Source: Candidatus Woesearchaeota archaeon (GTDB lineage: Archaea > Nanobdellota > Nanobdellia > Pacearchaeales > GW2011-AR1). From it: a stretch of 64,000 nt of DNA. Numbering within the stretch: position 1 is the stretch's first letter; each line of letters begins with the position of its first letter. Positions 2,911 through 64,000 of this stretch are shown here, one piece after another. The notes below the pieces were generated by a model that ran no database searches, was not told the origin of the DNA, and worked only from the letters and a program-made list of their open reading frames with translations. Position numbers and translations under genes: made by a program. Location: assembly GCA_964547875.1 (NCBI GenBank), contig CAZJPE010000001.1, positions 38,535-102,534 of the forward strand, in the 5' to 3' direction.

Positions 2911-2919
2911 TTTAATTTT

Positions 2920-3144
2920 ATGGCAGCTAAAATAAATTACATAGAAAAATTGATTGAATGGCATAAATACCCTATAAACGCATTTCTTCATCTTGTTGCA
3001 CTGATTATTTTAGTGATTGCCTTATGGTATCATAGCTGGATTGGGATTGTAATAGCGTTTGTTATTGCTTTAATAGGTCATTTGATTCAAGAAACATATA
3101 GCCATAAAGATAGAATTGACAAGCTTGAAAAGAAGAGAAGATGA
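2920..3144 (+). CDS. Small membrane protein (2 TM), hypothetical
   Basis: 74 aa, two hydrophobic helices. Confidence 0.4.
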   Translation: MAAKINYIEKLIEWHKYPINAFLHLVALIILVIALWYHSWIGIVIAFVIALIGHLIQETYSHKDRIDKLEKKRR

Positions 3145-3362
3145 GTGATAATCTTATTGGATTATAGAGAATTGAGTCCGCTTCGCTGACTTTGCAAGAT
3201 TAGCGGCTTTGCGTGAGTTTTAATCACATCTAGAAAAGTAAGACAATCTTCTAAAATTGTGTAAGATTATTCTTGCCGTTATTTATCCGTAATACCCTGT
3301 GATCTTGCCATAGTGATAAAGCTATAAGTTAACATAACTGACTATAGTAATTTATTACATTT

Positions 3363-4658: not shown

Positions 4659-4922
4659 TTTGTTACATTAAGATGTAACAAATAGTATATAAATGTTACG
4701 TTTTAGTGTAACTATAGTTTGAAGGTTGCGAAAACCGCTTCTAATAATTTTCTCTGAAGACTTACAAAAAACGCATGTTATCATTTTCACTCCTTCTCAT
4801 CGTGGAGGACATTTTATTATCAATCTATAGAAGACTTAATAGAATCTGTTGGATATATTGGCATAATAAGGATAACTTGGAAATACAAAAAGTATTAAAT
4901 ATCTCATTTCATTTTTTATCTC

Positions 4923-5603
4923 ATGAAAAGAGCAATTGTATTTTTGATTTTATTGTTAAATATAAATTTTTTTATTTCTTCTGTCAGCGCATTCGGAGTT
5001 GCAACTTTATATTCTGACAATTATCCTTTGAAAATGTATCCTGGAGAAACAAAAGAGACATTTTTTTTGTTGAGAAATGTTGTAGAGGGAGACGACGATG
5101 TTGTTATTAAGTCCGAACTTACGAGCGGGGCGGATATTGCCAAATTGATAGATGGGGCGAAGAGTTATGATGCCCCTTTTGGAAGCGAGATTGAAGTGCC
5201 TCTTAGCATAGAGATACCTAAAGAAGCAGTGATAGGGAGCGAGTATAGAATAGGGGCCATTTTCAGGCCAACTCCAACAAAGGTCGCAGGAGGAAATATT
5301 CAATTTATTATAAATATAGGAAAATCTTTTCCAGTTGTTATAATAGAGAAATCTAAACAAGCGAAGAAAGAGATTGAAACATATACAATAACACTTGAAG
5401 ATGATGGCGGAGTTGGAGGGGCATTTGCTCCGTTTATCAAGGGAGCAAAGGGTATTTGGCTCGGATTTATTTTTGGATTAATAGCAGGGATAATTATAGT
5501 GATAATGCTGATAATTTCTTTTACAATAAAAGCTGTAAAAAGAACTAGAGAATTAGCAGAAAACGATTTTATTCAGGCTGAGAATATTAGCAGACCATAT
5601 TAA
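4923..5603 (+). CDS. Surface protein with signal peptide and C-terminal TM anchor
   Basis: Signal peptide MKRAIVFLILLLNINFFISSVSA; C-terminal IWLGFIFGLIAGIIIVIMLIISF plus a basic tail. Confidence 0.5.
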   Translation: MKRAIVFLILLLNINFFISSVSAFGVATLYSDNYPLKMYPGETKETFFLLRNVVEGDDDVVIKSELTSGADIAKLIDGAKSYDAPFGSEIEVPLSIEIPKEAVIGSEYRIGAIFRPTPTKVAGGNIQFIINIGKSFPVVIIEKSKQAKKEIETYTITLEDDGGVGGAFAPFIKGAKGIWLGFIFGLIAGIIIVIMLIISFTIKAVKRTRELAENDFIQAENISRPY

Positions 5604-5868
5604 TGTTTTTTATTCATGTAGACTAGACCATAATTTTGTCTCTATACGAGATTTCGTTATTTTTGAAGATAAAATATCCCATCAAGATAACAATTATTAA
5701 GATTGCAAGCCAGAGAATAGCGGTTATTTTTTGATTCATGGAATGTTAAATCAGAGTTTATCTATAAATTTGCTCGTAAACGAAAGAAAATTACAACAAT
5801 TTAGATGACTTCATATTAACAGCTCACAATTCAGTAAGTCTTAAATAGATGATTTTATTATTTTAAGA

Positions 5869-44750: not shown

Positions 44751-47700
44751 ATGACAGAAGAAAATAACGAAAAGAAAATTGACGAAGCGATTGAGGAAAA
44801 GGAAAGAGAGAGAAGGAAGAAGGACATGATTGAGAATGGCGTTCAGGGAACTGAAATAGTTGAGGAGATGGAAAAATCTTACATTGATTATGCGATGTCT
44901 GTGATTGTGCAAAGGGCGCTGCCTTCTGTTGAAGATGGCTTGAAACCAGTGCATAGAAGAATTTTGTATTCAATGGAGCAGCTTGGGCTTGATGCTTCAA
45001 AGCCTACAAAAAAATCTGCTACTATTGTAGGAGATGTTATTGGAAAATATCATCCTCATGGAGACATTGCTGTTTATGATGCGCTTGTTAGATTAGCGCA
45101 GGATTTTTCTTTGCGCTATCCTCTTGTGCATGGGCAAGGAAATTTTGGCTGCTTCACAGCAGATACAAAAGTTAAACTTGCTGATGGCAGAGATTTATCT
45201 TTTATTGAGTTGATTGAAGAAAACAATAATGGGAAAAGGAATTTCACATTTACAATAGATAATGGCATTGTTAAAATAGCAGAAGTAAAAAATCCTAGAA
45301 TGACTAAAAAAAATGCAGAGATTATGAAAGTTTTTCTTGATAATGGTCAGGAAATCAAATGTACATTAAATCATTTATTTATGTTAAAGGATGGAAGCTA
45401 TAAAGAAGCAAGAAATCTAAAATCTGGGGACTCGTTGATGCCTCTTTATACGAAACTATCTACTGAAACTGACAGCCTAAAGAATCCAAAAACCATTGGC
45501 TATTCGATGATATTTCAGCCAAAATTAAAATCTTGGAATTTTATTCATATATTGGCTGATGAGTGGAATTTAGATAATAAAATATATGCAGTAAATTCTG
45601 GCAGAATAAGACATCACATTGATTTTAATAAGTTAAATAATAATCCTATAAATATCAAAAGAATGCATTGGAAAGAGCATTGGCAGACACATTACAATTT
45701 AACTTCTTCAAGACATAAAAATGATTTAGATTATAGAAAGAAATTGGAAGAGGGAAGGAGAAGGTTTTGGAGCGACGCTAAAAATCGAGAAGTTTATTCT
45801 CAAAGAATGACTGAAAGAAATTTAGAGAATTGGAAAAAAAGCAGTTATAGAGAAGAAAAACGCATTCAACTTAGTGAAATTAATAAAAAATATTTTAAAG
45901 AGAATCCAGAAGCTATAGAAATAATAAGAAAAAGAGCTTCTATAACTATGAAAAAAATGTGGGAAATTCCAAGATATAAAGAACTTTTTCATGAAAAAAT
46001 TGTCGCTTCTAATAAAAATAGAAAATCAAATCTAACTGGAAAAAAGAAATTTTTAAAGATATGTAATTATTTGCTGACTAAGAATTTACCATTAACAAAA
46101 GAAAATTTTGAAAATATTAGACAAAATATTTTTGGAATAAAAAGCTTTACCAGTTGGAATCATGGAATTAAAAAACATTTTAATGGAGATAAAAATTTAA
46201 TTTTAAATGAATTAAATGGGAATCATAAGGTTGTAGATATAGAATTTATCAATCAACATACTAGCGTTTACGATCTAACAATTGATGATACGCATAATTT
46301 TGCCCTTTCGGCAGGGATTTTTGTGCATAATTCATTAGACGGAGATTCAGCTGCAGCCTATAGATATACAGAAGCACGATTGAGTAAAATCTCTCAAGAG
46401 CTTTTGGCAGACATTGACAAAGAAACTGTCAAGATGAATCCGAATTTTGATAATTCTACAAAAGAACCAGAGACATTGCCTGCTAAACTGCCTAATCTCT
46501 TACTAAATGGGGCGACTGGAATAGCAGTCGGCATGGCTACTAACATACCTCCGCATAATTTGATAGAGTTGTGCGATGCTATTATTGCGTATATTGACAA
46601 TTCAGATGTCAGTATAGATGAACTTTTGCAGATTGTTAGAGGACCTGATTTTCCAACTGGAGGACATGCAATGGGGCCTGGAATTTTAGAGATGTACAAA
46701 ACAGGAAAAGGAAGGATAGTCATGAGAGCTAGAACCTCAATAGAGGAGAAAAAGGGAAGAGAAAACATAATTGTTACAGAGATTCCTTATATGGTTAACA
46801 AGGCAGAGCTGGTTAAGGATATTGCGAGGCTTGCAAGCGAGAAGAGATTGTCTGACATTTCTGACATATGGGATGAATCTGCAAAGGGAAAGATAAGAAT
46901 TGTTATCGAATTGAAGAAAGGCGTTGATTCAAAATATACGATAAACAGATTATACAAATTGACTAATATGCAGACTAATTTTGACGCTAATGTTTTAGCC
47001 TTGGTTGGCAAACAGCCGAGAGTGCTGAATTTGAGGGATGTTATTGTTGAGTATGTTAAATACAGAAGAATGATTGTTACTAATAGAAGTAAGTTTGAAT
47101 TGAAGAAAGCAGAAGATAGATTAGAAATTGTTCTCGGATTATTGATAGCCTTAAAGAATATAGATAGCATTGTTGAGCTTATAAAAAAGAGCAAGACAGT
47201 CAGCGAAGCGCATGAAGGGCTTATGAAGAAATTTGATTTTAGCGACAGACAGGCAAGGGCTGTTTTAGAGACGAAATTGCAGCAGCTTACTTCATTAGAG
47301 CACACAAAATTAAAGGAAGAGGAGCAGAAGCTGAAAGAGACAATAGAATATCTGAAAAATGTTTTGGGCTCTGACAAAGAGATTTTGAAAATTATCAAGA
47401 AAGAGGTTAATGAGCTGAAGAAGGAATATGGAGATGAGAGGAGGACTAAGATCGTGAGAAAGATTGATGAAATTTCTGAAGGCGACTTGATTGAGAAAAA
47501 AGACGTTGTTGTTATGCTGACAAATTCTGGATATATCAAGAGAGTTGATCTTAAGACTTATAAAGAGCAGAAAAGAGGAGGGGCAGGCGTTATGGGTACG
47601 GGATTAAAGGATGATGATTTTGTGAGAAAGATGATTAGCTGTTCAACTCATGATTATTTGCTGTTCTTTACAAAAAGAGGCAGAGTTTACTGGCTTAAGG

Positions 47701-48464
47701 CGCATGACGCTCCTGCTGCAGAAAGACAGGGTAAAGGAAGAAGCATTGCAAACTTACTGAATTTAAGAGAGGAGGCAATTGCCAATGTTATGGCTATTAC
47801 TAACTTTGAATCTGGGTATTTAATGTTTGCTACAAAATTAGGAATTGTGAAGAGGCTGCCTTTAAAGGATGTTTCTAATCCCAGAAGCACGGGAGTTAGA
47901 ATAATGAATCTGCCTGCTGACGGGAGTGACGAGATAATTAATGTCAGCAGAGTAGAGGATGGGCAGGAAGTATTGATTATCACAAAGAAAGGACAGGCTA
48001 TTAGATTTAATTCCAATGATGTTAGGGCTATGGGTAGAGCGAGTTATGGAGTCAAAGGAATTGATTTAGCAAAGAATGATTTAGTTGTTTCTTTAATGGC
48101 TGTTCCTAAAGATGGAAAGACAACTGTTCTAACACTAACGGAAAAGGGATTTGGGAAGAGGTCTGATATTGTGGAATATAGAAAAACTGCGAGAGCTGGA
48201 AAGGGCGTTATTAATTTAAAGACAAATGACAAGACAGGAAGCGTTATTGCATCTGTAGCTGTGAATGACAAAGATTCTGTTATTATTACTACAACAAAAG
48301 GCAATATTATAAGAATTCCAATGAAGGACTTGAGGGTTATGGGGCGAGCAACTCAGGGAGTGAGAGCTGTAAAGCTCAAGGAAGGAGATAAGGTTGCCGA
48401 TGTTGTTCGAGTCCCTGTAATGATTGAAGACTCTCGTTTTGCTGATATGTTTAGTAATCTTTAA
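44751..48464 (+). CDS. gyrA: DNA gyrase subunit A interrupted by an in-frame intein (extein ~843 aa)
   Basis: [23 protein letters not shown], catalytic Tyr in [32 protein letters not shown]-terminal beta-pinwheel repeats. A 394-aa insertion sits between GQGNFG and SLDGDS. Confidence 0.9.
45150..46331 (+). mobile_element. Intein (394 aa) with HNH-type homing endonuclease inside gyrA
   Basis: Starts with Cys ([13 protein letters not shown], block A); block [13 protein letters not shown]-like [24 protein letters not shown]; blocks [24 protein letters not shown] followed by Ser+1. Confidence 0.85.
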
Positions 48465-48789: not shown

Positions 48790-49173
48790 TTAGTGCTTTG
48801 ATACTGCCCATTTTCCAGGACCGCTTAAAGCAATTGTTATCAAGCCTGCTATTCCTATCAGATGAAAAAATGAGTTGCTTGAAGTAATTCCTCCATTCGG
48901 AACAACTACGAGAATCCACGCTACTGCTAGAATTATGGCCAATGGCCATGTTGTATATTTAGTTTTATAGCCTATAAGGATTAATGCGCCGAAAACAGTC
49001 TCCGAAAGGATTAAAAGCCATCCGAAGAAAGAAGGCAATGGAAAGCCTAATCCTCCAAGCATGCCAATCACTTGATCAGGGCCCATGAACTTTTTTATTC
49101 CTGCTATCAGGAATAAAAGGCCTATAACAACTCTTAACAGAGTATGGCCAAGTATGTGTTTGTCTGATGTCAT
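48790..49173 (-). CDS. DoxX-family membrane protein
   Basis: LLRVVIGLLFLIAGIKKF and four TM helices typical of DoxX. Confidence 0.6.
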   Translation of the reverse strand: MTSDKHILGHTLLRVVIGLLFLIAGIKKFMGPDQVIGMLGGLGFPLPSFFGWLLILSETVFGALILIGYKTKYTTWPLAIILAVAWILVVVPNGGITSSNSFFHLIGIAGLITIALSGPGKWAVSKH

Positions 49174-54808: not shown

Positions 54809-55366
54809 TTAATCAATAATTAAAAAGTAAAAAATTATAGAAAGTAATATAAAAATAATTAATGGAATAATTATATAATATTTTAGCCTTGTTTTAGACA
54901 ATTTAATTAAATAAGCTCCTAAGAAAATTAAGAACAGGGGAGATAGTAAGGGCATCAAAAAGATTTGAGAATAATATAATATTCCTAATATTCCAGATAA
55001 AGGACGAAGAATGATTGGCTCAAAATAAATAATTGAGAAAAGAAAAAGAATAATAACTCCAGAAATTAGCGAAGTGATTCCCATGTGTTTTAATGATTTT
55101 TCTTCTCTTTCTTCAAATTTTATATTAGCTTTAAATTTAATAAATAAGAAAAATGTTATTATAGGTATGCTAGTTATTAGTAAATTCAAAAAATACCATT
55201 CAAATCCGCCCTCATGAGAGATTGAATTGATCCAAATAAAAAAATGTAGCATTCCAAATACTATACTCGTTATTAATAAAATCCAATATCTTATTCTAGG
55301 TAATTTTCTCTTTGGCTTAGCCATCTTAGTGCTTAGATTATTTTTATTTTTATCTCCATTTATCAT
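54809..55366 (-). CDS. Multi-TM membrane protein, candidate immunity protein for toxin 55369-56343
   Basis: 185 aa, 5-6 hydrophobic helices; starts 3 nt after the toxin stop. Confidence 0.5.
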   Translation of the reverse strand: MINGDKNKNNLSTKMAKPKRKLPRIRYWILLITSIVFGMLHFFIWINSISHEGGFEWYFLNLLITSIPIITFFLFIKFKANIKFEEREEKSLKHMGITSLISGVIILFLFSIIYFEPIILRPLSGILGILYYSQIFLMPLLSPLFLIFLGAYLIKLSKTRLKYYIIIPLIIFILLSIIFYFLIID

Positions 55367-55368
55367 CT

Positions 55369-56343
55369 TTATTTCCTACCTTCATAGGCATATATGACTC
55401 CGTCTGGCCCGGGATCTTCAGTTTTACTATAAGGTTTAGAAAACCAAGAACTAATCTGTTCTAAATATGAGTTTTTTGATAAAGAATCTATTGGTTTTGC
55501 TTCGCTATTTTCACTACTGGATTTTTCAAGCTCATCTCCAATATATTCAATTATATTGTTTTTCGTTGTTTTAATATTTTCACGTTTGAAATCAAAAATT
55601 AAATGTTTTATATGCTCCTTCTTTGTTGTTCCCCAATCAGGTCCTCCTTGATGTATTGTATCTCCAAAAACATGCAAATATCTTCCTGCTCCGTTGTCTC
55701 CTCTTCGATATGCTTGAACAAATTTCTGTGCATTTTGCCGGAGTATATTTTCCATATTTTCATTACTAATATCAGAAGCAAGGTGAAAGAATCTATGATT
55801 TTCAGTTTCGGTGTACGAGCGCAAAGGAGGAATGTCTGGTGTAATGGAATCCCATGCTAGTTTAAGCGACTCAATTCTTCCAAATCCCAGTTCTCTACTA
55901 GCGCCATATGTCCCTATAAAATGTATGTCAACTGTTGATTTTCCTGTCGGGTCTGTATATCTATACGGATTATTAAGCACATAAGAATAACAATTCAATG
56001 CCTGAGGATTATAAATATCTGGCTTGATTGTATCACATTGTGTAAACAACTTGATAAATGAACTATAATACCTCGCACCTAAATAATCTAAATCAACTAA
56101 CTTATCTCTCTCCTTGCCAGCAAACAAAAATCTACTTAATTCCAATCCAGAATAAATCTCTCCAAACGGCAAATAAAACTCTTCCTCAACAACATCTCCT
56201 GTCTGATTTGTAACTAATGTTGTGCTGCCTAAATGGTCATCATGATAAAATGTCTTTGCGCCTGAATTGTCTTTCTTCGCAATTAATTTATCATTCGCAT
56301 AATAATATGTTTCATTGAGGATAGTTCCGCTCATTATTTTCAT
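55369..56343 (-). CDS. Orphan RHS-tip toxin module (starts directly at the conserved tip, no N-terminal domain) with a C-terminal toxin domain of unknown activity
   Basis: MKIMS-GTILNETYYYANDKLIAKKDNSGAKTFYHDDHLGSTTLVTNQTGDVVEEEFYLPFGE...DLDYLGARYY...ALNCYSYVLNNPYRYTDPTGK is the RHS repeat-associated core ending; tail KPYSKTEDPGPDGVIYAYEGRK. Confidence 0.7.
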   Translation of the reverse strand: MKIMSGTILNETYYYANDKLIAKKDNSGAKTFYHDDHLGSTTLVTNQTGDVVEEEFYLPFGEIYSGLELSRFLFAGKERDKLVDLDYLGARYYSSFIKLFTQCDTIKPDIYNPQALNCYSYVLNNPYRYTDPTGKSTVDIHFIGTYGASRELGFGRIESLKLAWDSITPDIPPLRSYTETENHRFFHLASDISNENMENILRQNAQKFVQAYRRGDNGAGRYLHVFGDTIHQGGPDWGTTKKEHIKHLIFDFKRENIKTTKNNIIEYIGDELEKSSSENSEAKPIDSLSKNSYLEQISSWFSKPYSKTEDPGPDGVIYAYEGRK

Positions 56344-56352
56344 TTTAGGGTT

Positions 56353-56709
56353 TTATTTTTCATCAACTAATTTTTCTTTCTCTAATATTTCTTTTAATTC
56401 CTTCTTTAATATTGGAATATCTTCATTAATTGTCTTCCAAATTATCCCAATATCAACACCAAAATAATGATGTATCATTTTATCCCTCATCCCTACTATT
56501 TTCTTCCATTCAATATTTTTATATTTATCAATAAATTCCGATGTTAGATTTTTAGCTGCTTCGCCTATTACTTCTATTCTCCTTATAGTAGCGTCCAATA
56601 TATCTCTATTATTCTCAAAATCTCTCTTTGAAAGATTCTTTATAGATTTTTCAATAAGGGTTATATTATCAAGTATATGACTAATAAATACTAAAGGATT
56701 CTTTCTCAT
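56353..56709 (-). CDS. HepT-like (DUF86) toxin of a HepT/MNT module
   Basis: RDKMIHHY gives the Rx4HxY catalytic motif; 118 aa. Confidence 0.8.
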   Translation of the reverse strand: MRKNPLVFISHILDNITLIEKSIKNLSKRDFENNRDILDATIRRIEVIGEAAKNLTSEFIDKYKNIEWKKIVGMRDKMIHHYFGVDIGIIWKTINEDIPILKKELKEILEKEKLVDEK

Positions 56710-56987
56710 ATTATCCTAATTTCCTCTTTAAGTATAGATTTCCTTAATAATGGATTTATTCCTTTATAAGTAAGCAAATCTACTTTTTTCTTTAGTTTTC
56801 TATTTAGTTCCATTTCTAATTCTATCAAACTCAATAAGCCTCCATTGAATTCTATTAAAATATCAATATCGCTATTTTTTTTAGCCTCGCCCCTTGCATA
56901 ACTGCCAAAAATTCCTGCCTTAGGTATATGATATTTTTTTAAGGTGCCTTTAATTTTTGATTTTATCTTGCTTATTTCATTTACCAT
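56706..56987 (-). CDS. MNT minimal nucleotidyltransferase antitoxin
   Basis: GIFGSYARGEAKKNSDIDILIEF = GSxxRG...DxD nucleotidyltransferase motif; 4-nt overlap with HepT. Confidence 0.8.
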   Translation of the reverse strand: MVNEISKIKSKIKGTLKKYHIPKAGIFGSYARGEAKKNSDIDILIEFNGGLLSLIELEMELNRKLKKKVDLLTYKGINPLLRKSILKEEIRII

Positions 56988-57074
56988 ATTATCCTATGAA
57001 ATTGATATTTTTTATATCTTTGGGATTTCCCATCAGGTTGTATAAACCTAAATAAAGTAGAAGGCTCATAATAT

Positions 57075-57554
57075 CTAATTTCCAGAATTATCTTTCTTTG
57101 CAACTAATTTACCATTTGCGTAATAATAAGTTTCATTTAATATTGTTCCATTGCTGTAACGAACTTGAATGAAATTGTCACTTATCTTATTTCTAAAATC
57201 AACAAATTCATCATAGATTATGTTTCTAAATCCAAAATCATAATTTTCATTATGAAATATAAAATGCAAAGAAATTCCTTGATTTAACCAATAGATATTT
57301 TGTTCTTCGTCATAAATGTAACCACTATCAAAATTTTTATCAGAATTATTTAATCCATAAATTGAGAATGTCAAACATTCTCCTAAAATATTATTTGTTA
57401 AATTATTTGAATGACAGATTATAGTGGATTGTGAATAGAAGTCTATTGTGTCGTTCCTTTCAGAGTTCTCTATGTTGTTTTGGGCAAGTGAGAGATTTAA
57501 TAATATGAGAATTAGGAAAATTGCTAAAATTATTTTTGGTAGATTAATATTCAT
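57075..57554 (-). pseudogene. Truncated toxin gene: Sec signal peptide plus N-terminal domain, ending 20 residues into the RHS-tip motif
   Basis: MNINLPKIILAIFLILILLNLSLA signal; ends ISDNFIQVRYSNGTILNETYYYANGKLVAKKDNSGN then stop, i.e. the same tip segment other array members continue through. Confidence 0.55.
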
Positions 57555-57559
57555 TTTTA

Positions 57560-57823
57560 TTATATAATCATTAAAATTATTATTGCTATAATGATGAGAG
57601 ATATGCCTATTCCTGTAGCAGAATTTTTACTTGTTGGTGCGCCCCTAATCCATGCTTTTTTAGTTTTTATAGATTTTACGCCTCCATGTAAAAGCCATAC
57701 GCCAAATAATATTAAGATAATACTATATAAATTAACTTCTTTAAAAGAATAAGATTTTATGAATCCAATTATAAAATATATTAAGTCATATAACCAAATA
57801 AAATTACTTTTCTTTTTCACCAA
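57560..57823 (-). CDS. Small 2-TM membrane protein, candidate immunity for toxin 57827-59182 (non-ATG start)
   Basis: 87 aa; two TM helices; no ATG available near the start (TTG/GTG); starts 3 nt after the toxin stop. Confidence 0.45.
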   Translation of the reverse strand: MVKKKSNFIWLYDLIYFIIGFIKSYSFKEVNLYSIILILFGVWLLHGGVKSIKTKKAWIRGAPTSKNSATGIGISLIIIAIIILMII

Positions 57824-57826
57824 TTT

Positions 57827-59182
57827 TTATATACAGGACATTATAACCCCACATCCTCCTCTGTTGTTATTACTTCTTGACTGTTCTTTATTAGATTTTG
57901 AAGATATTGCATTATTTAAATTTCTTCCGCCTCTATTCGATTGTGAGTTAGAGTTTGTTTGTTTATTGGAAGAATCTACCGTTCCTTTAAATATAGATTC
58001 TCCAAATTCAGAATATCCAGATTGTGCTGTTTGAGATATCGCTTCGCTAAATGTAGCTTTTCCTAATTGTGAGGATGGATAAAATTGGCCAGGCGTTCTT
58101 CTTATTATGCCAGGAAGAGAACTTTGCGAGATTCTTGATGAAATTACAGAATTAAAAACGGCGGATGTTAAAATATCTCTGCCTGAAATCTCATTATACC
58201 CTCTTCCTTCCACTAAAGTCTCTTGAGCAAACTCTTGTCCAGCACCAATGCCTGCTAATGCTGTTGTTCTAATAGCAGTGCCAACACCTGCTGTTGCAAT
58301 ACTTCTAAGCCCACCACTAGCTATAGCCGCTACTGTTGTTCCAGGAGAAATTAGTATACTTGCAGCAGTCGCTCCACCAGCAATCGTTCCAGATAACACA
58401 GCTTTGCCTATATCCCCAGTTTGCTGATAAGTAATATAACCTTGGATGCCTCCTATGACTATTGCGGGCACAGCAACAACCAAGACAGGAATGTTTCCTG
58501 TCTCATCCGTATACTTATACGGATTATTCAAAACATAAGAATAACAATTCAATGCCTGTGGATTATAAATATCTGGCTTTATTGTATCACATTGAATAAA
58601 TAGACTAGCAAATGGATTATAATACCTTGCGCCCAAATAATCTAAATCAACTAACTTATCCCTTTCCTTGCCTGCAAACAAGAATCTGTTTAGTCCAAGA
58701 CCTGAAAATATCTTTCCGAACGGCTCATAGAAATTCTCTTCTACAATATTGCCAGATTGATTTGTTACTAATGTAGTGCTACCTAAATGATCTCCATGAT
58801 AATAATTCTTACTTCCAGAATTGTCTTTCTTAGCAACAAGTTTATCATTGGCATAGTAATAAGTTTCATTTAATATAGTTCCATTAGAATATCTAATTTG
58901 AATAAAATTATCAGAGATATAATAAGTAGTTGCGTTAATGCCTGTGCTATAATCATAATCTGCCTTCTTAACCCTATTTCCTTCTGCATCATAAGCATAT
59001 TGCTCTATTAATCTTCCATTTGTTGAGTTAGTTATTTTTGTTAATTGGTTAAATCCATCATAAGTATAGTTTTTATCAAATCCTGAAATGAGATTGCCAT
59101 TTGGGTCATAAGGAAAAGGAGTCCAGATAATTTCTCCTTCCTCAATATAATTATCTTCTTTCTGTATTGTTATGAGTTTCAT
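57827..59182 (-). CDS. YD-repeat/RHS-tip polymorphic toxin with glycine-zipper (membrane-active) C-terminal domain
   Basis: N-terminal MKLITIQKEDNYIEEGEIIWTPFP; YD repeats YTYDGFNQL / YAYDAEGNRV; RHS tip ...YYHGDHLGSTTLVTNQSG...DLDYLGARYY...NNPYKYTDETGN; then IPVLVVAVPAIVIGGIQG...TIAGGATAASILISPGTTVAAIASGG; tail RGGCGVIMSCI. Confidence 0.75.
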   Translation of the reverse strand: MKLITIQKEDNYIEEGEIIWTPFPYDPNGNLISGFDKNYTYDGFNQLTKITNSTNGRLIEQYAYDAEGNRVKKADYDYSTGINATTYYISDNFIQIRYSNGTILNETYYYANDKLVAKKDNSGSKNYYHGDHLGSTTLVTNQSGNIVEENFYEPFGKIFSGLGLNRFLFAGKERDKLVDLDYLGARYYNPFASLFIQCDTIKPDIYNPQALNCYSYVLNNPYKYTDETGNIPVLVVAVPAIVIGGIQGYITYQQTGDIGKAVLSGTIAGGATAASILISPGTTVAAIASGGLRSIATAGVGTAIRTTALAGIGAGQEFAQETLVEGRGYNEISGRDILTSAVFNSVISSRISQSSLPGIIRRTPGQFYPSSQLGKATFSEAISQTAQSGYSEFGESIFKGTVDSSNKQTNSNSQSNRGGRNLNNAISSKSNKEQSRSNNNRGGCGVIMSCI

Positions 59183-59691
59183 TTCTTAATATTTTTATAT
59201 TTCTTAAATAACCCTCCTACTATTAATACAACAAATATGTATTGTAAGGGATAAATTATTAAAAACGATAGAATCCCAAAAAAATCAACCAAATCTGTAT
59301 AGGAACTTGGATCATAGGGTATAGTTGATTTATTAGCCAAATAAAAGCCAATATTGTTGGCTATTTCGGCTGTTATTCCTATTGGAATCAACATAAATAC
59401 CAACACACTTAAAAATATAAAATGAAAATTATACTTTATAGGTTTCAAATAAGGTATTAAAGTTATTAGATTATGTAATAAATAAAGAGGAATTAAAACT
59501 AAAATAAAGCTTCCTAATATTATCTCTTCTAAACCACTAGAACCAAGAACAGAGAGATATATTTCACTATATTGAAATAGGTAATTTGTAATAAACCAAA
59601 CTATTGCCGTTGATAAAATGATAGAGAAAGAAAGATAAACTATCAATTTCAGCTGATTTCCTATAATATCTTTTATGTTATTTTTTTTCAT
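59179..59691 (-). CDS. Multi-TM membrane protein, candidate immunity for toxin 59693-61051
   Basis: ATG 1 nt after the toxin stop (the track extends to GTG 59700); 4-5 TM helices. Confidence 0.5.
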   Translation of the reverse strand: MKKNNIKDIIGNQLKLIVYLSFSIILSTAIVWFITNYLFQYSEIYLSVLGSSGLEEIILGSFILVLIPLYLLHNLITLIPYLKPIKYNFHFIFLSVLVFMLIPIGITAEIANNIGFYLANKSTIPYDPSSYTDLVDFFGILSFLIIYPLQYIFVVLIVGGLFKKYKNIKK

Positions 59692-59692
59692 C

Positions 59693-61051
59693 TTATGCAC
59701 AACTCATGATTTTGCCACATCCTTTATTTCTACTACCTTCAGATTTATCTTTATTATATGGTTTTTCAACTATTCTTTTATCATAGTTATATGTTTTATC
59801 TATTCCTGGAGAAATTGCCCAAGGAGATAGATCTCCCTTAGGAAAACTACTGCCTGCATTTTCTGTAGCAGTTCTTGCGAAAACATTTGAATTAGATCTA
59901 CTGCTACCTACTTTAGGGTTGAGAACATACGGCACCTTCGCTTCATTCAATTTGTTTCCTTCTGCTATAATATCATTAATAAATTCTGTATCTGTCTTTC
60001 CTTCTGGCGTATTCAATAATACATTGCTATATTCTTTAGTTCCTCCTGTTTTCTCCACATTCTTTCCAAATTGCAAAATACTATTAGGATTAAAAATTCC
60101 ATCTGAAGCATATGCCCCTAAATTGAAGTTGGTTTCTCCTCTAAAGTCTTCCGGATTATCAGGTATAACATTAAAGTAAGAATGAGTAGTATGACTTGTA
60201 ACAAAATTAGAGACCACTCTAAGAAAAAGAATATCACTATTTGCATATTGATTATTTATACTTCTTGTAACTAAATAAACCTCCTTGCCATTTGGGTCTA
60301 TGTATTTATAAGGATTGTTAAGCACATAGGCATAATGATTTAGATTTTGTGGGTTGAATATATTAGCTATCATAGAATCAGGAGAAATAAACATCCTCAT
60401 AATTGAAGCCTGATAATACCTTGCTCCATAATAATAAATATCAACTAATTTATCAAACTCTTGAGCCGTGAATAAATATCTTGAACTTTCACTTCCACTA
60501 TACACATCACCAAACGGCAAATAAAACTCTTCTTCTGTAATATTTCCTGTTTGATTAGTTACTAATGTAATAGAACCCAAGTGGTCAGAATGATAATATG
60601 TCTTTGCACCGCTATTATCTTTCTTTACAATTAATTTATCATTTGCATAGTAATATGTTTCATTTAATATTGTTCCGTTTGTATAGCGGATTTGAATGAA
60701 ATTGTCGCTAATGTAATAGGTTGTTTGATTATTTCCTGTTGTGTAATCATATTCTACTTTCTTTATTCTGTTGCCATCAGCATCATACCTATATTCTGCT
60801 ATAACATTTCCTGTGGCATTCTTCTTTCTAACTGAAGATAATTGATTGAATGGATCATACTCGTAATATTTGCCAAGTCCTTTTATTAAATTTCCATTTG
60901 CGTCATAAGTCATATCTGTGTTATAAGTTAAGAGATTTTCGTAATCTAAGGCGTATTCTAGATAGAGTTCTTCTTCGCTATTATATTTATTTTCTGATAA
61001 AAACGGCGTCCAGATTAGTATGTTATTTTTTGGGTTTGTTAGGATTTGCAT
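59693..61051 (-). CDS. YD-repeat/RHS-tip polymorphic toxin, C-terminal toxin domain of unknown activity
   Basis: N-terminal MQILTNPKNNILIWTPFL; YD repeats MTYDANGNL / YEYDPFNQL / YRYDADGNRI; RHS tip to NNPYKYIDPNGK; ~200-aa unique C-terminal domain; tail EKPYNKDKSEGSRNKGCGKIMSCA. Confidence 0.75.
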   Translation of the reverse strand: MQILTNPKNNILIWTPFLSENKYNSEEELYLEYALDYENLLTYNTDMTYDANGNLIKGLGKYYEYDPFNQLSSVRKKNATGNVIAEYRYDADGNRIKKVEYDYTTGNNQTTYYISDNFIQIRYTNGTILNETYYYANDKLIVKKDNSGAKTYYHSDHLGSITLVTNQTGNITEEEFYLPFGDVYSGSESSRYLFTAQEFDKLVDIYYYGARYYQASIMRMFISPDSMIANIFNPQNLNHYAYVLNNPYKYIDPNGKEVYLVTRSINNQYANSDILFLRVVSNFVTSHTTHSYFNVIPDNPEDFRGETNFNLGAYASDGIFNPNSILQFGKNVEKTGGTKEYSNVLLNTPEGKTDTEFINDIIAEGNKLNEAKVPYVLNPKVGSSRSNSNVFARTATENAGSSFPKGDLSPWAISPGIDKTYNYDKRIVEKPYNKDKSEGSRNKGCGKIMSCA

Positions 61052-61052
61052 T

Positions 61053-61304
61053 TTAAATAAAAGTCAGATATATTCCTAAAATGATTAAAATAATACCTAT
61101 ACAAATGCCTAATGGAGCAAAAAACTTTCTTATAATATTTGCCGCTTTATCTTCGCCAAAAATTTTTCTCCAAATAAAAGCTTTTGGGCTTTTCTTGACA
61201 TAATTCTCTAGAAACTTTTTATCTTTAATGGCTTTTGTCGCATAATAAAAGTTTATTACACCAGCTAATAAAATTAATAAAGAATAAGTGTTAAATTTAA
61301 TCAT
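61053..61304 (-). CDS. Small 2-TM membrane protein (extra/orphan immunity-like gene)
   Basis: 83 aa; sits between the barstar-like gene and the next toxin. Confidence 0.4.
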   Translation of the reverse strand: MIKFNTYSLLILLAGVINFYYATKAIKDKKFLENYVKKSPKAFIWRKIFGEDKAANIIRKFFAPLGICIGIILIILGIYLTFI

Positions 61305-61348
61305 ATTTATATTAGTTTTATTAAGTTTAAAAGTTTTTGTTTTTATTC

Positions 61349-61642
61349 TTATTTCTCAATCTTAAATTTTACATGATATTTATGATTTCTTATTATTTCA
61401 AGTATATTTTTTAAGAATTCTTCAGGCAATTCTTTTTTTGATTTATCAAAGTTTCTCCAAACTAAAATTATCTTTTCTTTGAACTCAAATTGGTATCCTC
61501 CATATAGGATATCGTCAAAAGCATCATAGTTTCTACCAAAACCTTTAAAATCATTAGTCAGCACACTTACTATCTCGTCATAAAATCCTTTTATATCATG
61601 AAAATTTTCTCCATCTATAATAAAAGTCTTTATTTTCTTCAT
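61349..61642 (-). CDS. Barstar-like RNase inhibitor (immunity protein)
   Basis: IIDGENFHDIKGFYDEIVSVL...FGRNYDAFDDIL...IILVWRNFDKSKKELPEEFLKNILEII is colinear with barstar ([21 protein letters not shown]...YGENLDALWDCL...LVLEWRQFEQSKQ). Confidence 0.8.
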   Translation of the reverse strand: MKKIKTFIIDGENFHDIKGFYDEIVSVLTNDFKGFGRNYDAFDDILYGGYQFEFKEKIILVWRNFDKSKKELPEEFLKNILEIIRNHKYHVKFKIEK

Positions 61643-62688
61643 TTCTTTTTAGAACCTCCAAAAACATTTTTAATCTTATCTACGATTTTAGTAAATGAAC
61701 TCTTTTCGTAATGCTTATCAGTATAATATGTTTCTCCGCCCTTACCAGTTATAACTCTTTCTGGATTTTTTCTACTAGTTACATCATGAGTTGTATAATA
61801 ACCTAGTTCTTGTTTTGGAAGTGCGCCCTCTACATTCTTAAATTCATGGGGTCTTAGCCCATCAGTCTTTCCACTTTGTATTTTATTAATTGTATCTTGG
61901 ACACTTTGAGGCAAATCGGATAACTTGGTTTCCTTTAATTTATCCGCGACATTTTCTGCGCCCTTCAAAGCATCTCCCACCTTCTCCCCGGTCTTAGCCA
62001 AATCAGCCACATCACTAACTCTATCAATTCCTTTAGCAACTCTAAATCCTGCCCCTAATCCAGTTACAAAAGGCAAGGCTGCTCCTGCAACATCTAAACC
62101 AAGAGCAACATAATTGGCAGAATTGTCAGGATCTTGAATAATGCTATAAATATCATATCCGATAAATCCTACATCGGCAACAGTTTCTATATAATGCCCA
62201 GTACCATCTTTGTATTTGTAGGGATTGTTTCTTGCATAATTATAACAGTTTAATTGTTGAGGATCGTAAATATCTGGCTTAATTGTATCACACTGTATAA
62301 ACAACCTCATAATAGAAGCTTGATAATACCTCGCCCCATAATAATACAAGTCAACAAGCTTATCAAACTCTTGAGCTGTGTATAAAAACCTAGATAATCC
62401 AGCTCCAGATAGTATATCGCCAAAAGGACCATAAAAGTTTTCTTCAACAATATGCCCACTCTGATTAGTAACTAAACTCGTACTACCTAAATGGTCTCCA
62501 TGATAAAATGTTTTTGCTCCTGAATTATCCTTTTTAGCAACTAATTTATCATTGGCGTAATAATATGTTTCGTTGAGAATTGTTCCGTTAGTGTTCTCAT
62601 CATTTAAAATATATTCCATATAAAATTCTTCTTGTGGCATTTGTGTCCAGATGAACTCGTTATCTTTTTCTATAATAATAGTTATCAT
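61639..62688 (-). CDS. RHS-tip polymorphic toxin with C-terminal barnase/RNase Sa-T1 family ribonuclease domain
   Basis: N-terminal MITIIIEKDNEFIWTQMP; RHS tip; C-terminal LPQSVQDTINKIQSG...FKNVEGALPKQELGYYTTHDV...ERVITGKGGETYYTDKHYEKSSFTKI aligns with RNase Sa (FQNRESVLPTQSYGYYHEYTV...RRIICGEATQEDYYTGDHYATFSLI). Confidence 0.8.
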   Translation of the reverse strand: MITIIIEKDNEFIWTQMPQEEFYMEYILNDENTNGTILNETYYYANDKLVAKKDNSGAKTFYHGDHLGSTSLVTNQSGHIVEENFYGPFGDILSGAGLSRFLYTAQEFDKLVDLYYYGARYYQASIMRLFIQCDTIKPDIYDPQQLNCYNYARNNPYKYKDGTGHYIETVADVGFIGYDIYSIIQDPDNSANYVALGLDVAGAALPFVTGLGAGFRVAKGIDRVSDVADLAKTGEKVGDALKGAENVADKLKETKLSDLPQSVQDTINKIQSGKTDGLRPHEFKNVEGALPKQELGYYTTHDVTSRKNPERVITGKGGETYYTDKHYEKSSFTKIVDKIKNVFGGSKKK

Positions 62689-63074
62689 TTTTTATCTACA
62701 TTTCTTAATTTTCTCATTAATTTAACAATTCCAAGACCTAAATAAAATCCAATTAATAAACCTGCTATTTTAATAACTAAAAAATCTCCCCAATAATATT
62801 TTAATAATTGCCAAGATATGATGGCTAGTAATATAGAAAATAACAATTCTCTTTCGTTAAGTGAGTTTTTGTTCATTTTAAAAAAGCCCCTTCCTTCTTT
62901 GGAATAGATTATCGATGTTACTAAAAATCCAAAGAATATACCGAGTATCATAATAATTGATCCAAAAATTATAATAAAGACTGGGCTACGCTTGCCTATG
63001 ATAGAGGCACCAATCGCAAGAATCAAAAAAGCAATCCCATACATTATTATTGTAACTATTTTTTCTTTATCCAT
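62685..63074 (-). CDS. 3-4 TM membrane protein, candidate immunity for toxin 63077-64000+
   Basis: The ATG (MDKEKIV...) lies 2 nt after the toxin stop; its end overlaps the next toxin start (ATGA). Confidence 0.5.
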   Translation of the reverse strand: MDKEKIVTIIMYGIAFLILAIGASIIGKRSPVFIIIFGSIIMILGIFFGFLVTSIIYSKEGRGFFKMNKNSLNERELLFSILLAIISWQLLKYYWGDFLVIKIAGLLIGFYLGLGIVKLMRKLRNVDKK

Positions 63075-63076
63075 TT

Positions 63077-64000
63077 TTATGCACAACTCATAACTTTATT
63101 GCAACCTCCATCTTGATTTTTTTCTGCTAAATTACTGCCTTTATTTATAGGTTTACTTCCATATCCATAAATTACACCATCAGGACCAGGATCTTGAGTC
63201 CTACTGAATGGTTTATTGAAGTTATATTCATTATAATAATCTTGTAACGTATTTTCTTTTATAAGTTTTGTGTTATCTAATTTCTCTTTTTCAAAATCTT
63301 CATCAGGTTCTCTATCTAATTCTCCAAAATCAAAAATAGGATATCCTTTACTCCACTGATAAGCTACTCCAACTTTTGCCAATATATTTGGATCATTAAG
63401 TCCCTGTGTAATAGGGTCGCCTTTTATAAAATTAGTAGTTATTTGGGTTGTTACAGTTTCTGTTATGATGGGGGCACCAACAGTTGCTATTGATGAACCT
63501 CCTGAAAGAATACCTGCTACAACAGTAGCTCCTGCAACTCCTCCTCCAGCCAAACCTGCGACAGCGGAATCTGTAATGTCCACCCAAGTAGCTTGCGGAT
63601 TATTTGCTGTATTAATGGCTCCTATAATCGCTCCAATGACAGCTCCCCCAACAACTATACTCGCCACAGTAATTGTTATCGGGTCTATTAAATTTCCACT
63701 CTCATCAGTATATTTGTAGGGATTATTCAAGACATAACTATAACAATTCAATGCCTGAGGATTATAAATATCTGGCTTAATTGTATCGCATTGAGTGAAT
63801 AATCTCATAATTGACGCTTGATAGTAACGAGCGCCATAATAATACAAATCAATAGCCTTGTCCAATTCCTTAGCTGTATAGAGGAATCTGCTTAATTCAG
63901 GCCCTATAAAGATATCTCCGAATGGACCATAGAAATTCTCTTCTGTTATATTCCCTGTCTGATTTGTCACAAGCGTTGTTGAACCAAGATGATCTGGATG
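63077..64000 (-). CDS. RHS-tip polymorphic toxin with glycine-zipper C-terminal domain (5' part outside window)
   Basis: Frame open to the window edge (…HPDHLGSTTLVTNQTGN…); RHS tip to NNPYKYTDESGN; ITITVASIVVGGAVIGAIIGAI...VAGLAGGGVAGATVVAGILSGG; tail KPFSRTQDPGPDGVIYGYGSK...GGCNKVMSCA. Confidence 0.7.
   Translation of the reverse strand, partial: HPDHLGSTTLVTNQTGNITEENFYGPFGDIFIGPELSRFLYTAKELDKAIDLYYYGARYYQASIMRLFTQCDTIKPDIYNPQALNCYSYVLNNPYKYTDESGNLIDPITITVASIVVGGAVIGAIIGAINTANNPQATWVDITDSAVAGLAGGGVAGATVVAGILSGGSSIATVGAPIITETVTTQITTNFIKGDPITQGLNDPNILAKVGVAYQWSKGYPIFDFGELDREPDEDFEKEKLDNTKLIKENTLQDYYNEYNFNKPFSRTQDPGPDGVIYGYGSKPINKGSNLAEKNQDGGCNKVMSCA

Follow-up and report, generated by a model that had tools for sequence, protein, structure and literature searches.

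In a clade of DPANN archaea (annotations: Nanoarchaeota, Pacearchaeota or Woesearchaeota), several RHS (TcC-like) toxins carry a translated, modular C-terminal extension that is exchanged among toxin bodies without detectable similarity, is under selection at the protein level and occurs only on toxins with membrane-embedded ORFs in the immunity position. This tail has three parts: a junction motif (KP[YF]SxTxDPGPDGVIYxY here, in relatives often [NQ]EEG[SG]G[RK][RK] or PGPSG-type), a spacer of ~12-60 residues that is rich in S/G or S/N/K and without sequence constraint, and a terminal C-x4-5-C unit, a hydrophobic heptapeptide between two cysteines with the consensus G-C-G-x-x-M-[ST]-C and 0-4 residues after it.

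Toxin ends in the window

The toxin ORFs T1, T2, T3, T4 and T6 of the window (the whole stretch of 64,000 nucleotides analysed) were translated from the minus strand, and all peptides quoted in the original prediction were recovered. The shared tail it described is real: three RHS toxin ORFs end in G-C-x-x-[IV]-M-S-C-[AI]-stop, and KP[FY]SxTxDPGPDGVIYxY is present in two, T1 and T6. A back-translated pattern of the cysteine motif matched the window three times (57827-57856, 59693-59722 and 63077-63106; 0.00 expected from 100 shuffles) and the DPGPDGVIY pattern twice (55390-55416 and 63167-63193; shuffled expectation 0.00).

63077-63970, minus: T1, ORF passing the window end, terminates in NKPFSRTQDPGPDGVIYGYGSKPINKGSNLAEKNQDGGCNKVMSCA-stop
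63077-63703, minus: C-terminal toxin domain and tail of T1, belonging to the main RHS/TcC-like gene
63161-63214, minus: T1 tail element 1, junction motif KPFSRTQDPGPDGVIYGY
63107-63160, minus: T1 tail element 2, low-complexity, polar K/N/S-rich spacer GSKPINKGSNLAEKNQDG
63077-63106, minus: T1 tail element 3, terminal C-x5-C ring G-C-N-K-V-M-S-C-A-stop
61639-62688, minus: T2, orphan barnase-type toxin (Pfam PF00545), terminates in KIVDKIKNVFGGSKKK-stop, without cysteine tail
59693-61051, minus: T3, ORF terminates in EKPYNKDKSEGSRNKGCGKIMSCA-stop
59693-60295, minus: T3 orphan toxin domain and tail, enzyme-like body of unknown kind
59693-59767, minus: T3 tail, EKPYNKDKSEGSRNK spacer, then G-C-G-K-I-M-S-C-A-stop (59693-59722)
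57827-59182, minus: T4, ORF terminates in NNNRGGCGVIMSCI-stop
57827-58504, minus: T4 orphan toxin domain and tail, Gly-zipper-like
57827-57976, minus: T4 tail, S/N/K/Q-rich spacer of ~40 aa (start approximate), then G-C-G-V-I-M-S-C-I-stop (57827-57856)
55369-56343, minus: T6, ORF terminates in SKPYSKTEDPGPDGVIYAYEGRK-stop
55369-55950, minus: T6 orphan toxin domain, unknown body, tail element 1 only
55369-55437, minus: T6 tail, KPYSKTEDPGPDGVIYAYEGRK-stop

The main RHS gene, which ends in T1, encodes 1122 aa, extends past the window end and comes after a TcB-like gene (TcdB_toxin_midN, FG-GAP). Its Rhs_assc_core domain lies upstream of the toxin domain, which begins after NNPYKYTD and has a hydrophobic, Gly/Ala-rich body. 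Conserved motifs mark the T3 body (THSYF, PDNPEDF, TPEGKTDTEF, NSNxF), and the T4 family includes P0019, P0089, P0140 and the main gene of L085. T6 and P0001 carry the junction motif alone; in L169 the T6-type junction motif (DSGQDGVIYAYEGR) runs on into a cysteine pair. Residues S/G/N/Q/K/T/P make up 57% of the spacer composition across the last 70 to 9 residues. T2 served as the internal comparison for the tail-bearing toxins; the barnase-type toxin, said originally to lack the tail, is indeed without its cysteines but has a short basic extension past the barnase fold.

Conservation and recurrence of the tail

It had been proposed that conservation of the tail lies on the protein and is not residual nucleotide homology, and the synonymous codon changes within the motifs bear this out. 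The Ser codon differences claimed for the three window copies (AGT, AGT and TCC) hold, and across all copies the Ser of M-S-C is encoded by AGT, AGC or TCC, with Gly and Cys codons varying too. Between T1 and T6, 7 of the 9 DPGPDGVIY codons differ synonymously, the L169 and L086 copies differ again, and the copies of the whole T1 junction motif in T6, P0001, L086 and L169 likewise vary by synonymous codons. In the T4 family alignment C218, G219 and C224 are invariant, and the terminal C-G-x-x-x-x-C is conserved after an unconserved spacer. Since its copies differ by synonymous codons, the tail is under protein-level selection.

Ends of the form C-x4-5-C-x0-4 were found in 17 of 122 distinct archaeal-type toxin C-termini versus none of 82 others, mostly bacterial (Fisher p = 1.3e-4), and the tail was seen in at least 9 separate samples or MAGs. 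Among the distinct C-x5-C units (n = 17), M is present in 13 and S/T in 13; in P0096, P0108 and P0114 the unit stands in tandem, giving four cysteines. About nine toxin bodies, mutually unrelated by BLAST, carry the tail, and the bodies of T1, T3, T4 and T6 show no mutual BLASTP similarity, as the original prediction held. Ends also change within a family: the T3 and P0104 bodies have the cysteine tail and their homologue P0088 a basic end instead, and the L082 main gene, P0098 and P0103 have it while P0016, with the same body, ends basic. The tail recurs in homologues and in non-homologues from other genomes, and is thus no duplication artefact.

Within all DNA examined, 20 of the 927 ORFs of at least 150 aa end in the tail motif and 19 of these 20 are RHS toxin ends, in a DNA sample enriched for RHS loci, which limits the genome-wide reach of this restriction; within the sequences examined, the tail is limited to RHS toxin ends. 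In described RHS and polymorphic systems the toxin domain itself forms the extreme C-terminus (PMC3482391), and a shared tail is as unusual for polymorphic toxins as first supposed. No Pfam or NCBIfam model, signal models included, matched it. The tail adds, past the toxin domain, a module common to different toxin bodies that neither collection covers.

Membrane ORFs and the proposed role of the paired cysteines

The ORFs in the immunity position of the window toxins are listed below.

62685-63074, minus: ORF after T1, called from an ATG that lies 2 nt past the T1 stop and gives 129 aa; 3 membrane segments were predicted on a longer 133-aa reading from an upstream TTG
61349-61642, minus: Barstar-type soluble immunity gene for T2 (Pfam PF01337), no membrane segment
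59179-59691, minus: ORF after T3, called from an ATG that lies 1 nt past the T3 stop and gives 170 aa; 4 membrane segments were predicted on a longer 173-aa reading from an upstream GTG; homologue of the ORF after P0104
57560-57823, minus: short membrane ORF after T4, 87 aa, TTG start, 2 membrane segments, absent from the gene calls
54809-55366, minus: ORF after T6, 185 aa, 5 predicted membrane segments

The short ORF after T4 may be decayed, because its match to the 156-160 aa ORFs that follow T4 homologues covers just their C-terminal half. All 15 tail-bearing toxins with known context are followed by multi-pass membrane ORFs. With membrane segments called by a simple hydropathy rule and downstream ORFs taken as putative immunity genes by position, at least one segment was predicted for 10 of 10 ORFs after tail-bearing toxins, versus 5 membrane and 13 soluble after tail-less ones (p = 2.5e-4; p = 0.0016 after collapsing by family), and membrane ORFs lie downstream in all of 5 further tail-bearing loci. 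Partners of tail-less toxins, the barnase type included, are mostly soluble, and most tail-bearing bodies are hydrophobic and Gly/Ala-rich. The cysteine ring is dispensable for the membrane-type class, since P0016, the 519-aa orphan in L169 and P0088, which are membrane-type toxins, end in a basic tail.

Cysteines in the 17 tail-bearing toxin domains all fall within the last 19 residues, and their count is always 2 or 4. In 6 of 7 full-length proteins examined, which have signal-peptide-like N-termini, each cysteine lies 4-33 residues (mostly 4-10) from a partner; the seventh, the main protein of L169, has a close tail pair and, outside the tail, two cysteines 34 residues apart. A DsbA-like protein is encoded in one tail-bearing genome. 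AlphaFold2 models were of too low confidence to be informative on structure (pLDDT 31 and 36).

The original prediction had suggested an export signal, a lipidation site or an anchor; the data favour instead a paired-cysteine ring specific to membrane-acting cargo, probably closed by a disulfide. Because it is found only on toxins with putative membrane-protein antidotes, the tail probably helps membrane-attacking toxins to work, as judged from sequence. Our tentative proposal is a tethered end-piece, closed by a disulfide, that is specific to membrane-acting cargo and has converged on the frog Rana box. The two cysteines would form a ring on the secreted toxin, and the tethered ring would engage the membrane or envelope, or stabilise the cargo, at the target membrane. 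Tc-toxin cargo exits the TcB-TcC cocoon C-terminus first (bioRxiv 10.1101/590430), and if RHS cargo leaves its shell in the same way, the ring would meet the target first. Its working would resemble that of the Rana box by convergence, not homology. The source habitats, groundwater among them, may be anoxic, a point against a disulfide, and the body of the T3 family looks enzyme-like and not pore-forming, a point against the membrane reading.

The same exit order (bioRxiv 10.1101/590430) would also suit an exit or translocation leader, in which a C-terminal end-piece, cysteine ring or basic amphipathic, engages a TcB/TcC-like gate or channel for any toxin type. A TcB-like gene adjoins the RHS gene in L001 and L169 and lies just downstream in L166, L167 and L168, cargo length is uniform (~190-240 aa), cysteine and basic ends interchange within one toxin family, and 33 of 105 archaeal-type ends satisfy a crude basic-end rule, versus 8 of 82 others. 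However, a general delivery signal would not predict a cysteine tail confined to toxins with downstream membrane ORFs, many ends in the clade match neither type, spacer length varies about five-fold and a TcA-like partner was not found, and we regard a leader as unlikely. The large upstream gene of L082 encodes an NHL-repeat protein without demonstrated TcB likeness.

We give a rather smaller chance to a modification or processing site, with the cysteines carrying a lipid, a thioether link or a metal, or with the distal tail cleaved (for example at an EEGSGRR-type dibasic junction) into a small cyclic peptide. The tiny motif with invariant C, M and S/T, the many tails with a dibasic junction motif and the tandem four-cysteine forms speak for it, as does what we take to be a superficial likeness to Cys-rich peptide precursors. 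Against it, the eight neighbourhoods examined held no recurring radical-SAM, lanthipeptide, prenyl- or acyl-transferase or dedicated peptidase gene, the cysteine is off the CaaX position in most copies, and no signal model matched in Pfam or NCBIfam.

It is improbable that the tail is a docking handle to which membrane immunity proteins, or a common small partner, bind in the producer, despite its strict co-occurrence with membrane ORFs and although small two-helix ORFs of one family and a common C-terminal helix motif recur after several tail-bearing toxins. Immunity to polymorphic toxins is specific to the toxin body, the downstream ORFs form several families that follow the body and not the tail, and weak BLAST links among them are unreliable because membrane proteins have hydrophobic composition in common. 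Slightly less credible still is a neutral hitch-hiker, a lineage-specific appendage spread by cassette recombination without a function of its own: the tail is confined to one archaeal clade (0/82 other ends) and dispensable in some homologues (P0088, P0016, P0001), but homologues of ~40-45% identity keep the motif next to a spacer that has wholly diverged, change within the motifs is only synonymous and the cysteine count is always even.

Least credible by far is an RNA or DNA signal, the tail codons holding a ribosome-binding or reinitiation signal for the immunity gene or a homology arm for cassette exchange. T1 and T3 have 15 identical bases in common (ATGAGTTGTGCATAA) with an ATG 1-2 nt later, an upstream GGAGG is present in T1, T4 and L082, and in tail-less cassettes the final GG codons coincide with a Shine-Dalgarno-like GGAGG/GGGGG 8-11 nt before the next start (in T2, GGAGGT 11 nt before the overlapping start). 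Nevertheless, synonymous changes run throughout both motifs, including Ser AGY to TCC, stop-to-start distance ranges from 1 to ~40 nt in differing frames, GGAGG is missing in T3, L085 and L086 and elsewhere lies 27-30 nt from the immunity start, and a homology arm between toxin and immunity gene would split the pair. Translational reinitiation, raised earlier as an alternative, is not supported as the cause of conservation: the Ser codon switch and the GGAGG pattern speak against it, tight coupling (overlap to 5 nt) is found in the tail-less cassettes T2 and T6 as well, and related tails lie 40 nt from the next start.

Comparison with known systems

In eukaryotic YD-shell proteins (teneurin), the TCAP likewise closes the chain as a short conserved peptide, after a toxin-derived domain and preceded by a basic processing-like site; it has no sequence similarity to the archaeal tail, lacks a cysteine ring and acts in signalling in animals. 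Class IIb microcins (MccE492) are Gly-rich membrane-active toxins followed by a Ser/Gly-rich C-terminal tail for targeting, not killing, but that tail is Ser-terminated, without a cysteine pair and siderophore-modified by dedicated enzymes, none of which were found near the archaeal tail loci. PGF-CTERM, PEP-CTERM and LPXTG are likewise conserved extreme C-terminal motifs on secreted proteins after a low-complexity linker; these sorting signals, however, combine a transmembrane helix with a basic end and are spread over many protein families, whereas the archaeal end-piece, 7-9 residues long and without a helix, was met on RHS toxins only.

The Rana box of brevinins, esculentins and nigrocins also places two cysteines, with four or five residues between them, at the extreme C-terminus of membrane-active, often Gly-rich peptides, and nigrocin CGLxGLC resembles archaeal CGVIMSC and CFGGLFC (PMC6280737). 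It is eukaryotic and without homology to the archaeal tail; the frog peptides are short, cationic and without a long spacer, while the archaeal carrier is a 200-aa RHS cargo whose disulfide we infer. What the Rana box does in these frog peptides is itself a matter of dispute. Finally, the Rhs_assc_core, YD repeats, variable C-terminal toxin, adjacent immunity gene, downstream orphan array and TcB-like neighbour are all those of RHS/TcC polymorphic toxins with orphan cassettes, to which the archaeal toxins add a module common to different bodies.

Layout of the RHS locus

Pfam and NCBIfam matches identified an RHS polymorphic-toxin locus on the minus strand, from ~55.3 kb to the window end, in DNA of ~31% GC content; the names attached to its relatives include Nanoarchaeota, Pacearchaeota and Woesearchaeota, which makes the organism an archaeon of DPANN type. 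The locus belongs to a metagenomic contig of 290 kb (ERZ27284378 k139_317676), of which 21 kb surrounding it are called L001 below. The features of RHS/TcC-like polymorphic toxins are present (core domain, YD repeats and shell, downstream putative immunity gene and orphan cassettes), as is the Tc toxin BC cocoon feature of a TcB-like gene adjoining the main RHS gene. The RHS repeat-associated core (TIGR03696) matched directly before the variable C-terminal domain in toxin ORFs T1, T3, T4 and T6 and in six relatives (E 1e-15 to 1e-22), and terminates in NNPYKY[TV]D. In addition, YD/RHS repeats (PF05593) matched T3 and T4, and TEN_YD-shell matched the main gene. The locus comprises a barnase/barstar pair and four further cassettes, with a small, putatively immunity-encoding ORF 0-5 nt past each stop.

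63077-63970, minus strand: T1, last part of the 1122-aa main RHS gene (Laminin_G_3 and YD shell)
Upstream of the main RHS gene: TcB-like gene, 1520 aa, with FG-GAP_3 (weak), TcdB_toxin_midN, RHS_repeat (faint) and DUF6443
Downstream of T1: the complete orphan cassettes T2 (barnase type, followed by barstar), T3, T4 and T6, four in all
57075-57554, minus strand: T5, a truncated fragment in the orphan array
56353-56987, minus strand: toxin-antitoxin pair within the orphan array, made up of a HepT-like protein (118 aa) and an MNT nucleotidyltransferase (93 aa) and flanked by the T5 fragment and T6
44751-48464, plus strand: GyrA gene with an intein (Intein_splicing domain inside DNA_topoisoIV, from domain matches)

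Judged by eye rather than by family search, TcB-like N-terminal sequence also occurs in two related RHS loci (L167 and L168), and inspection of the window's large ORFs turned up no TcA translocator partner. Measured between the core end (NNPYKYxD) and the stop, the toxin domains of the related proteins (P-numbers) and loci fell narrowly at ~190-240 aa, whatever the toxin type and with or without the tail described below, and this narrow cargo length fits a size limit imposed by a shell. The T5 fragment (57075-57554, minus strand) and several orphan cassettes of relatives (P0001; L086 13284-14603; L169 10713-12275) open with their own signal-peptide-like segment, e.g. MNINLPKIILAIFLILILLNLSLAQNN, and few YD repeats precede their core. 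It may be that some orphans are not silent spares and are expressed independently, as small secreted toxins with an RHS core.

A modular tail and its distribution

The original prediction was of a conserved tail behind unrelated toxin domains, and translation recovered every quoted peptide in place. The back-translated cysteine motif gave three matches and DPGPDGVIY two in the window, against 0.00 expected from shuffles in each case. As claimed, the conservation lies in the protein: 7/9 codons of DPGPDGVIY differ synonymously between T1 and T6, Ser of M-S-C is encoded once by TCC and twice by AGT, and codon choice varies for Gly and Cys as well. BLASTP found no similarity among the four bodies (T1, T3, T4, T6). 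Only the RHS core was recognised in the Pfam and NCBIfam searches and the tail remained unmatched; it is undescribed in these libraries.

The tail consists of three parts: a junction motif (here KP[FY]SxTxDPGPDGVIYxY; in relatives [NQ]EEG[SG]G[RK][RK], often with PGPSG), a spacer of ~12-60 residues made up to 56-85% of S/G/N/Q/K/T/P with zero conserved positions, and a cysteine-bracketed heptapeptide at the terminus. The resemblance of PYxxTxDPG to the core end NPYKYTDPxG raised the idea of a second RHS autocleavage site, which found no support, as a profile of 163 core ends scored the motif in no tail; a stray YD repeat was dismissed, RHS_repeat being unmatched in the T1 toxin domain. Alignment of the T4 family showed a conserved body, a non-conserved spacer and invariant C218, G219 and C224 at the end. 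Clustering of the toxin bodies minus their last 60 residues yielded ~9 unrelated tail-bearing groups. Moreover, the end can differ between homologues: T3 and P0104 carry the cysteine tail, whereas P0088, 67% identical to T3, instead ends in SGIFKKLLNLFKG; the L082 main gene, P0098 and P0103 carry it, and P0016 has an N/Q spacer with a basic Phe/Arg-rich end.

C-terminal ends of tail-bearing relatives (each followed by the stop, except the L169 main gene)
Protein or locus; toxin body; end
P0019 / L082 orphan; T4 homologue; GGCGVLMSCP
L085 main gene; T4-type; GVCGVVMSCL
P0089; T4 homologue; RGCGKIMSCSI
P0104; T3 homologue; GGCGVFMTCY
L086 / P0091; different; HPGSDGVAYGSGG...CGCGCSMSCPKK
P0096, P0108, P0114; different; tandem ring, e.g. 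GCGFTMSCGSGCGSFMSCGH
P0098; different; GGCGSYMTCI
P0103; different; GGNCGVNLNCI
P0029, P0042; different; W[WY]CFGGLFC
L082 main gene; different; GGGCLWIFCWGG
L169 main gene; different; DSGQDGVIYAYEGR, then a cysteine pair

As the L169 motif runs on into a cysteine pair, the T6 tail appears to be a shortened form. The tandem ring (GCGFTMSC-GSG-CGSFMSC-GH and similar, four cysteines) of P0096, P0108 and P0114 lies at L169 7920-7981, L166 7110-7167 and L167 5345-5402.

An exhaustive HMM search for the RHS core end supplied an unbiased sample of the clade, from which we took the distinct toxin C-termini of 120 aa or more. A C-x4-5-C-x0-4 end was found in 17/122 archaeal-type C-termini, i.e. those following an NNPYxYxD core end, versus 0/82 others, mostly bacterial (Fisher p = 1.3e-4). 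Looser variants (C-x3-C, C-x7-C or farther from the end) lift the archaeal share to ~1/5, and the consensus of 17 distinct C-x5-C units is G-C-G-x-x-M-[ST]-C. RHS toxin ends account for 19/20 occurrences of the terminal motif. A scan of genome representatives (~18 archaeal and ~60 bacterial loci) found the tail in none, with only a loose variant, LCTGICVKS, in L017; archaeal representatives beyond this narrow lineage thus lack the tail, and it is not a general archaeal RHS feature. An IMG/VR scan with the back-translated motif gave 0 matches, and a word-index search with the tail alignment alone, a query too short for that method, gave one candidate and nothing scored; the concatenated T3, T6 and T4 toxins returned at least four matches, including the informative P0088 and P0089. 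A duplication artefact would leave the motif absent from homologues elsewhere, but both homologues and non-homologues in other samples bear the tail. The tail is real, translated, modular and lineage-specific, a lineage-restricted yet widespread module.

Many tail-less toxins of the archaeal clade terminate in a basic amphipathic piece (KIVDKIKNVFGGSKKK, ILQKVKSFFGGK, SGIFKKLLNLFKG, GIFNRIRNFFRNR); examples are the T2 end at 61639-61690 of the window, L086 8950-8999, 10170-10217 and 14555-14603, and many P-series matches. By a crude rule (an aromatic residue and at least three K/R among the last residues), such ends make up 33/105 archaeal-type ends versus 8/82 others, and may represent a second kind of C-terminal end-piece.

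It had also been proposed that the nucleotides of the tail serve reinitiation of the immunity gene. The 0-5 nt stop-to-start distance is common to all window cassettes, with or without a tail, so that termination-reinitiation coupling is plausible but no property of the tail. The next start lies ~40 nt off where the tail is of the CFGGLFC or CLWIFC kind; T3, L085 and L086 lack GGAGG, which elsewhere stands 27-30 nt from the immunity start. On the codon evidence and this variable spacing we rejected the idea that the tail acts in ribosome binding or reinitiation, and equally that it is an arm for recombination. In the tail-less ends FGGSKKK, FFGGK and KGGDK (window 61639-61660 and 55369-55385; L086 toxin ends), the final two Gly codons overlie GGAGG/GGGGG 8-11 nt before the next start, and this apparent protein motif is thus probably in part an embedded ribosome-binding site. 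Directly past the stop of two CFGGLFC-type toxins (L082 11276-11320, L085 4599-4640) we observed an ATG with GGAGG[GT] 12 nt before it, opening a short ORF (MEKERSKMEGLIKN / MESQKSRIRSLLKN). This ORF runs in a different frame across the start called for the membrane ORF, and it may be a small coupling ORF or a product of chance.

Cysteines, toxin bodies and downstream ORFs

The cysteines of the 17 tail-bearing toxin domains all fall within the last 19 residues, always two or four per domain, while 80/105 other archaeal-type toxin domains are cysteine-free. The tail cysteines are 4-5 residues apart and the last stands 0-3 residues from the end (17/17). Close pairing extends to the whole proteins: in six of seven full-length RHS proteins each cysteine is 4-33 residues from a partner, mostly 4-10, the exception being the L169 main protein, where non-tail cysteines 294 and 328 lie 34 apart and the tail pair is close. 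Main genes inspected for pairs were those of L001, the locus of this contig (main gene at 2738-6106), L166, L167, L168, L170 and L082; the T1 protein has pairs 139/143, 590/600, 886/901 and 1115/1121, and L166 has six close pairs. N-terminal pairs recur at like positions in five proteins (~40/45, 75/80, 190/195). The full-length proteins begin with signal-peptide-like segments, and one tail-bearing genome encodes a membrane-anchored DsbA-like protein. This gene and one in the window may bear on extracellular thiol chemistry:

L170 6003-6797: the DsbA-like protein, of thioredoxin fold and with a CPFC site, encoded 3 kb away from the gene that bears the tail
Window ~48790-49173 (L001 20010-20393): MauE/DoxX-family membrane protein, ~6 kb beyond the array

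From the even counts, the local pairs, the signal-like N-termini and the DsbA-like gene we infer local disulfides, which would close the seven-residue end into a ring.

Furthermore, a hydropathy rule applied to the first ORF past each toxin called a membrane ORF behind 10/10 tail-bearing toxins, versus 5 membrane and 13 soluble ORFs behind tail-less toxins of the same clade (p = 2.5e-4; p = 0.0016 after collapse to families). Three of the five tail-less membrane cases (T6, L017, L094) have tail-like ends. Membrane ORFs also follow the toxin in another five loci with the tail, bringing the total to 15/15. Toxins with recognisable cytoplasmic targets, among them barnase (next to barstar) and colicin D (next to its immunity protein), lack the cysteine tail and are paired with soluble proteins. 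The tail is linked to cargo whose immunity position is occupied by membrane ORFs. Tail-bearing bodies are mostly Gly/Ala-rich and hydrophobic, the exception being the T3 family, which resembles an enzyme. Pfam, NCBIfam and PDB sequence searches returned nothing on the identity of the T3 and T6 bodies, and AlphaFold2 models were no help here (pLDDT 31 in the T3/T6 attempt; the T4 model was also poor). Immunity of the CPBP/CaaX-protease type was rejected, Pfam being unmatched in four downstream ORFs, as was a common immunity partner recognising the tail: where membrane ORFs are linked by BLAST, the links track the families of the toxins or are too weak to rely on. The ORF behind T4 is shorter than its counterparts in homologues:

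57560-57823, minus strand: ORF after T4, 87 aa, TTG start, not called as a gene

Its match to the 156-160 aa membrane ORFs behind T4 homologues (L082, L085) is confined to their C-terminal half, and the cassette may hold a decayed immunity gene next to an intact toxin ORF.

Possible function and comparison with known systems

We tentatively favour a role of the tail at the target envelope. The terminal cysteines would close by a disulfide into a hydrophobic ring on a flexible tether, the spacer, and the ring would help membrane-acting cargo to engage the envelope or to survive there. The ring would probably also lead the exit from the shell. Cargo of Tc toxins exits the TcB-TcC cocoon C-terminus first (bioRxiv 10.1101/590430) and, with a TcB-like neighbour here, the ring may emerge first. 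The same C-terminus-first exit and the TcB-like gene adjoining the RHS gene speak for a general exit leader, which we consider a good deal less probable; it is the main rival, or a complement, to a purely membrane-directed role.

A comparably doubtful reading is that the extreme C-terminus of archaeal RHS cargo is an address label, an end-piece that emerges from the shell ahead of the rest and decides the cargo's destination, or that enzymes modify the ring or set it free as a cyclic peptide. A small set of interchangeable end-pieces would then serve different cargo, the cysteine ring for membrane-acting toxins and the basic amphipathic end for others. If true, polymorphic toxin systems would contain a module concerned with delivery that has so far gone unrecognised. 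A simple modification or processing site is more unlikely still, as no radical-SAM, SPASM or lanthipeptide-synthetase domain occurs in eight neighbourhoods; on the same result a Cys-rich RiPP precursor (SCIFF, ranthipeptide, lanthipeptide) was rejected. CaaX prenylation was discarded, the last cysteine being at -1 to -4, mostly -2, and at -4 only in the L082 main gene, where W-G-G follows, and a PGF-CTERM/PEP-CTERM sorting signal likewise, with no NCBIfam or Pfam match on the tail, a piece too short for the helix, and near-confinement to RHS toxin ends.

To our knowledge, cell-cell weaponry of DPANN archaea is almost unstudied. The spacer followed by a terminal G-C-G-x-x-M-S-C offers a simple sequence marker for membrane-acting cargo in these archaea and, if the tail governs exit or targeting, it could be used for steering engineered RHS or Tc cargo. 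The usual scheme of polymorphic toxins is a delivery part, a toxin domain and the stop, and a conserved post-toxin module swapped among unrelated toxins extends it; in the reference survey, which mentions few archaeal systems, the toxin domain is the extreme C-terminus (PMC3482391).

Among known systems the tail has its closest working analogue, by analogy and not homology, in the Rana box that frog antimicrobial peptides carry, in which two disulfide-joined cysteines stand 4-5 residues apart with the second C-terminal, and which in nigrocin reads CGLxGLC on a Gly-rich membrane-active peptide (PMC6280737). All 17 tails share this spacing, with the second cysteine at or near the C-terminus. The carrier of the Rana box is membrane-active; the bodies here are mostly Gly/Ala-rich and hydrophobic, with membrane ORFs downstream, yet the T3 body resembles an enzyme. 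The cysteine ring at the C-terminus may have been invented a second time here, independently of the frog peptides.
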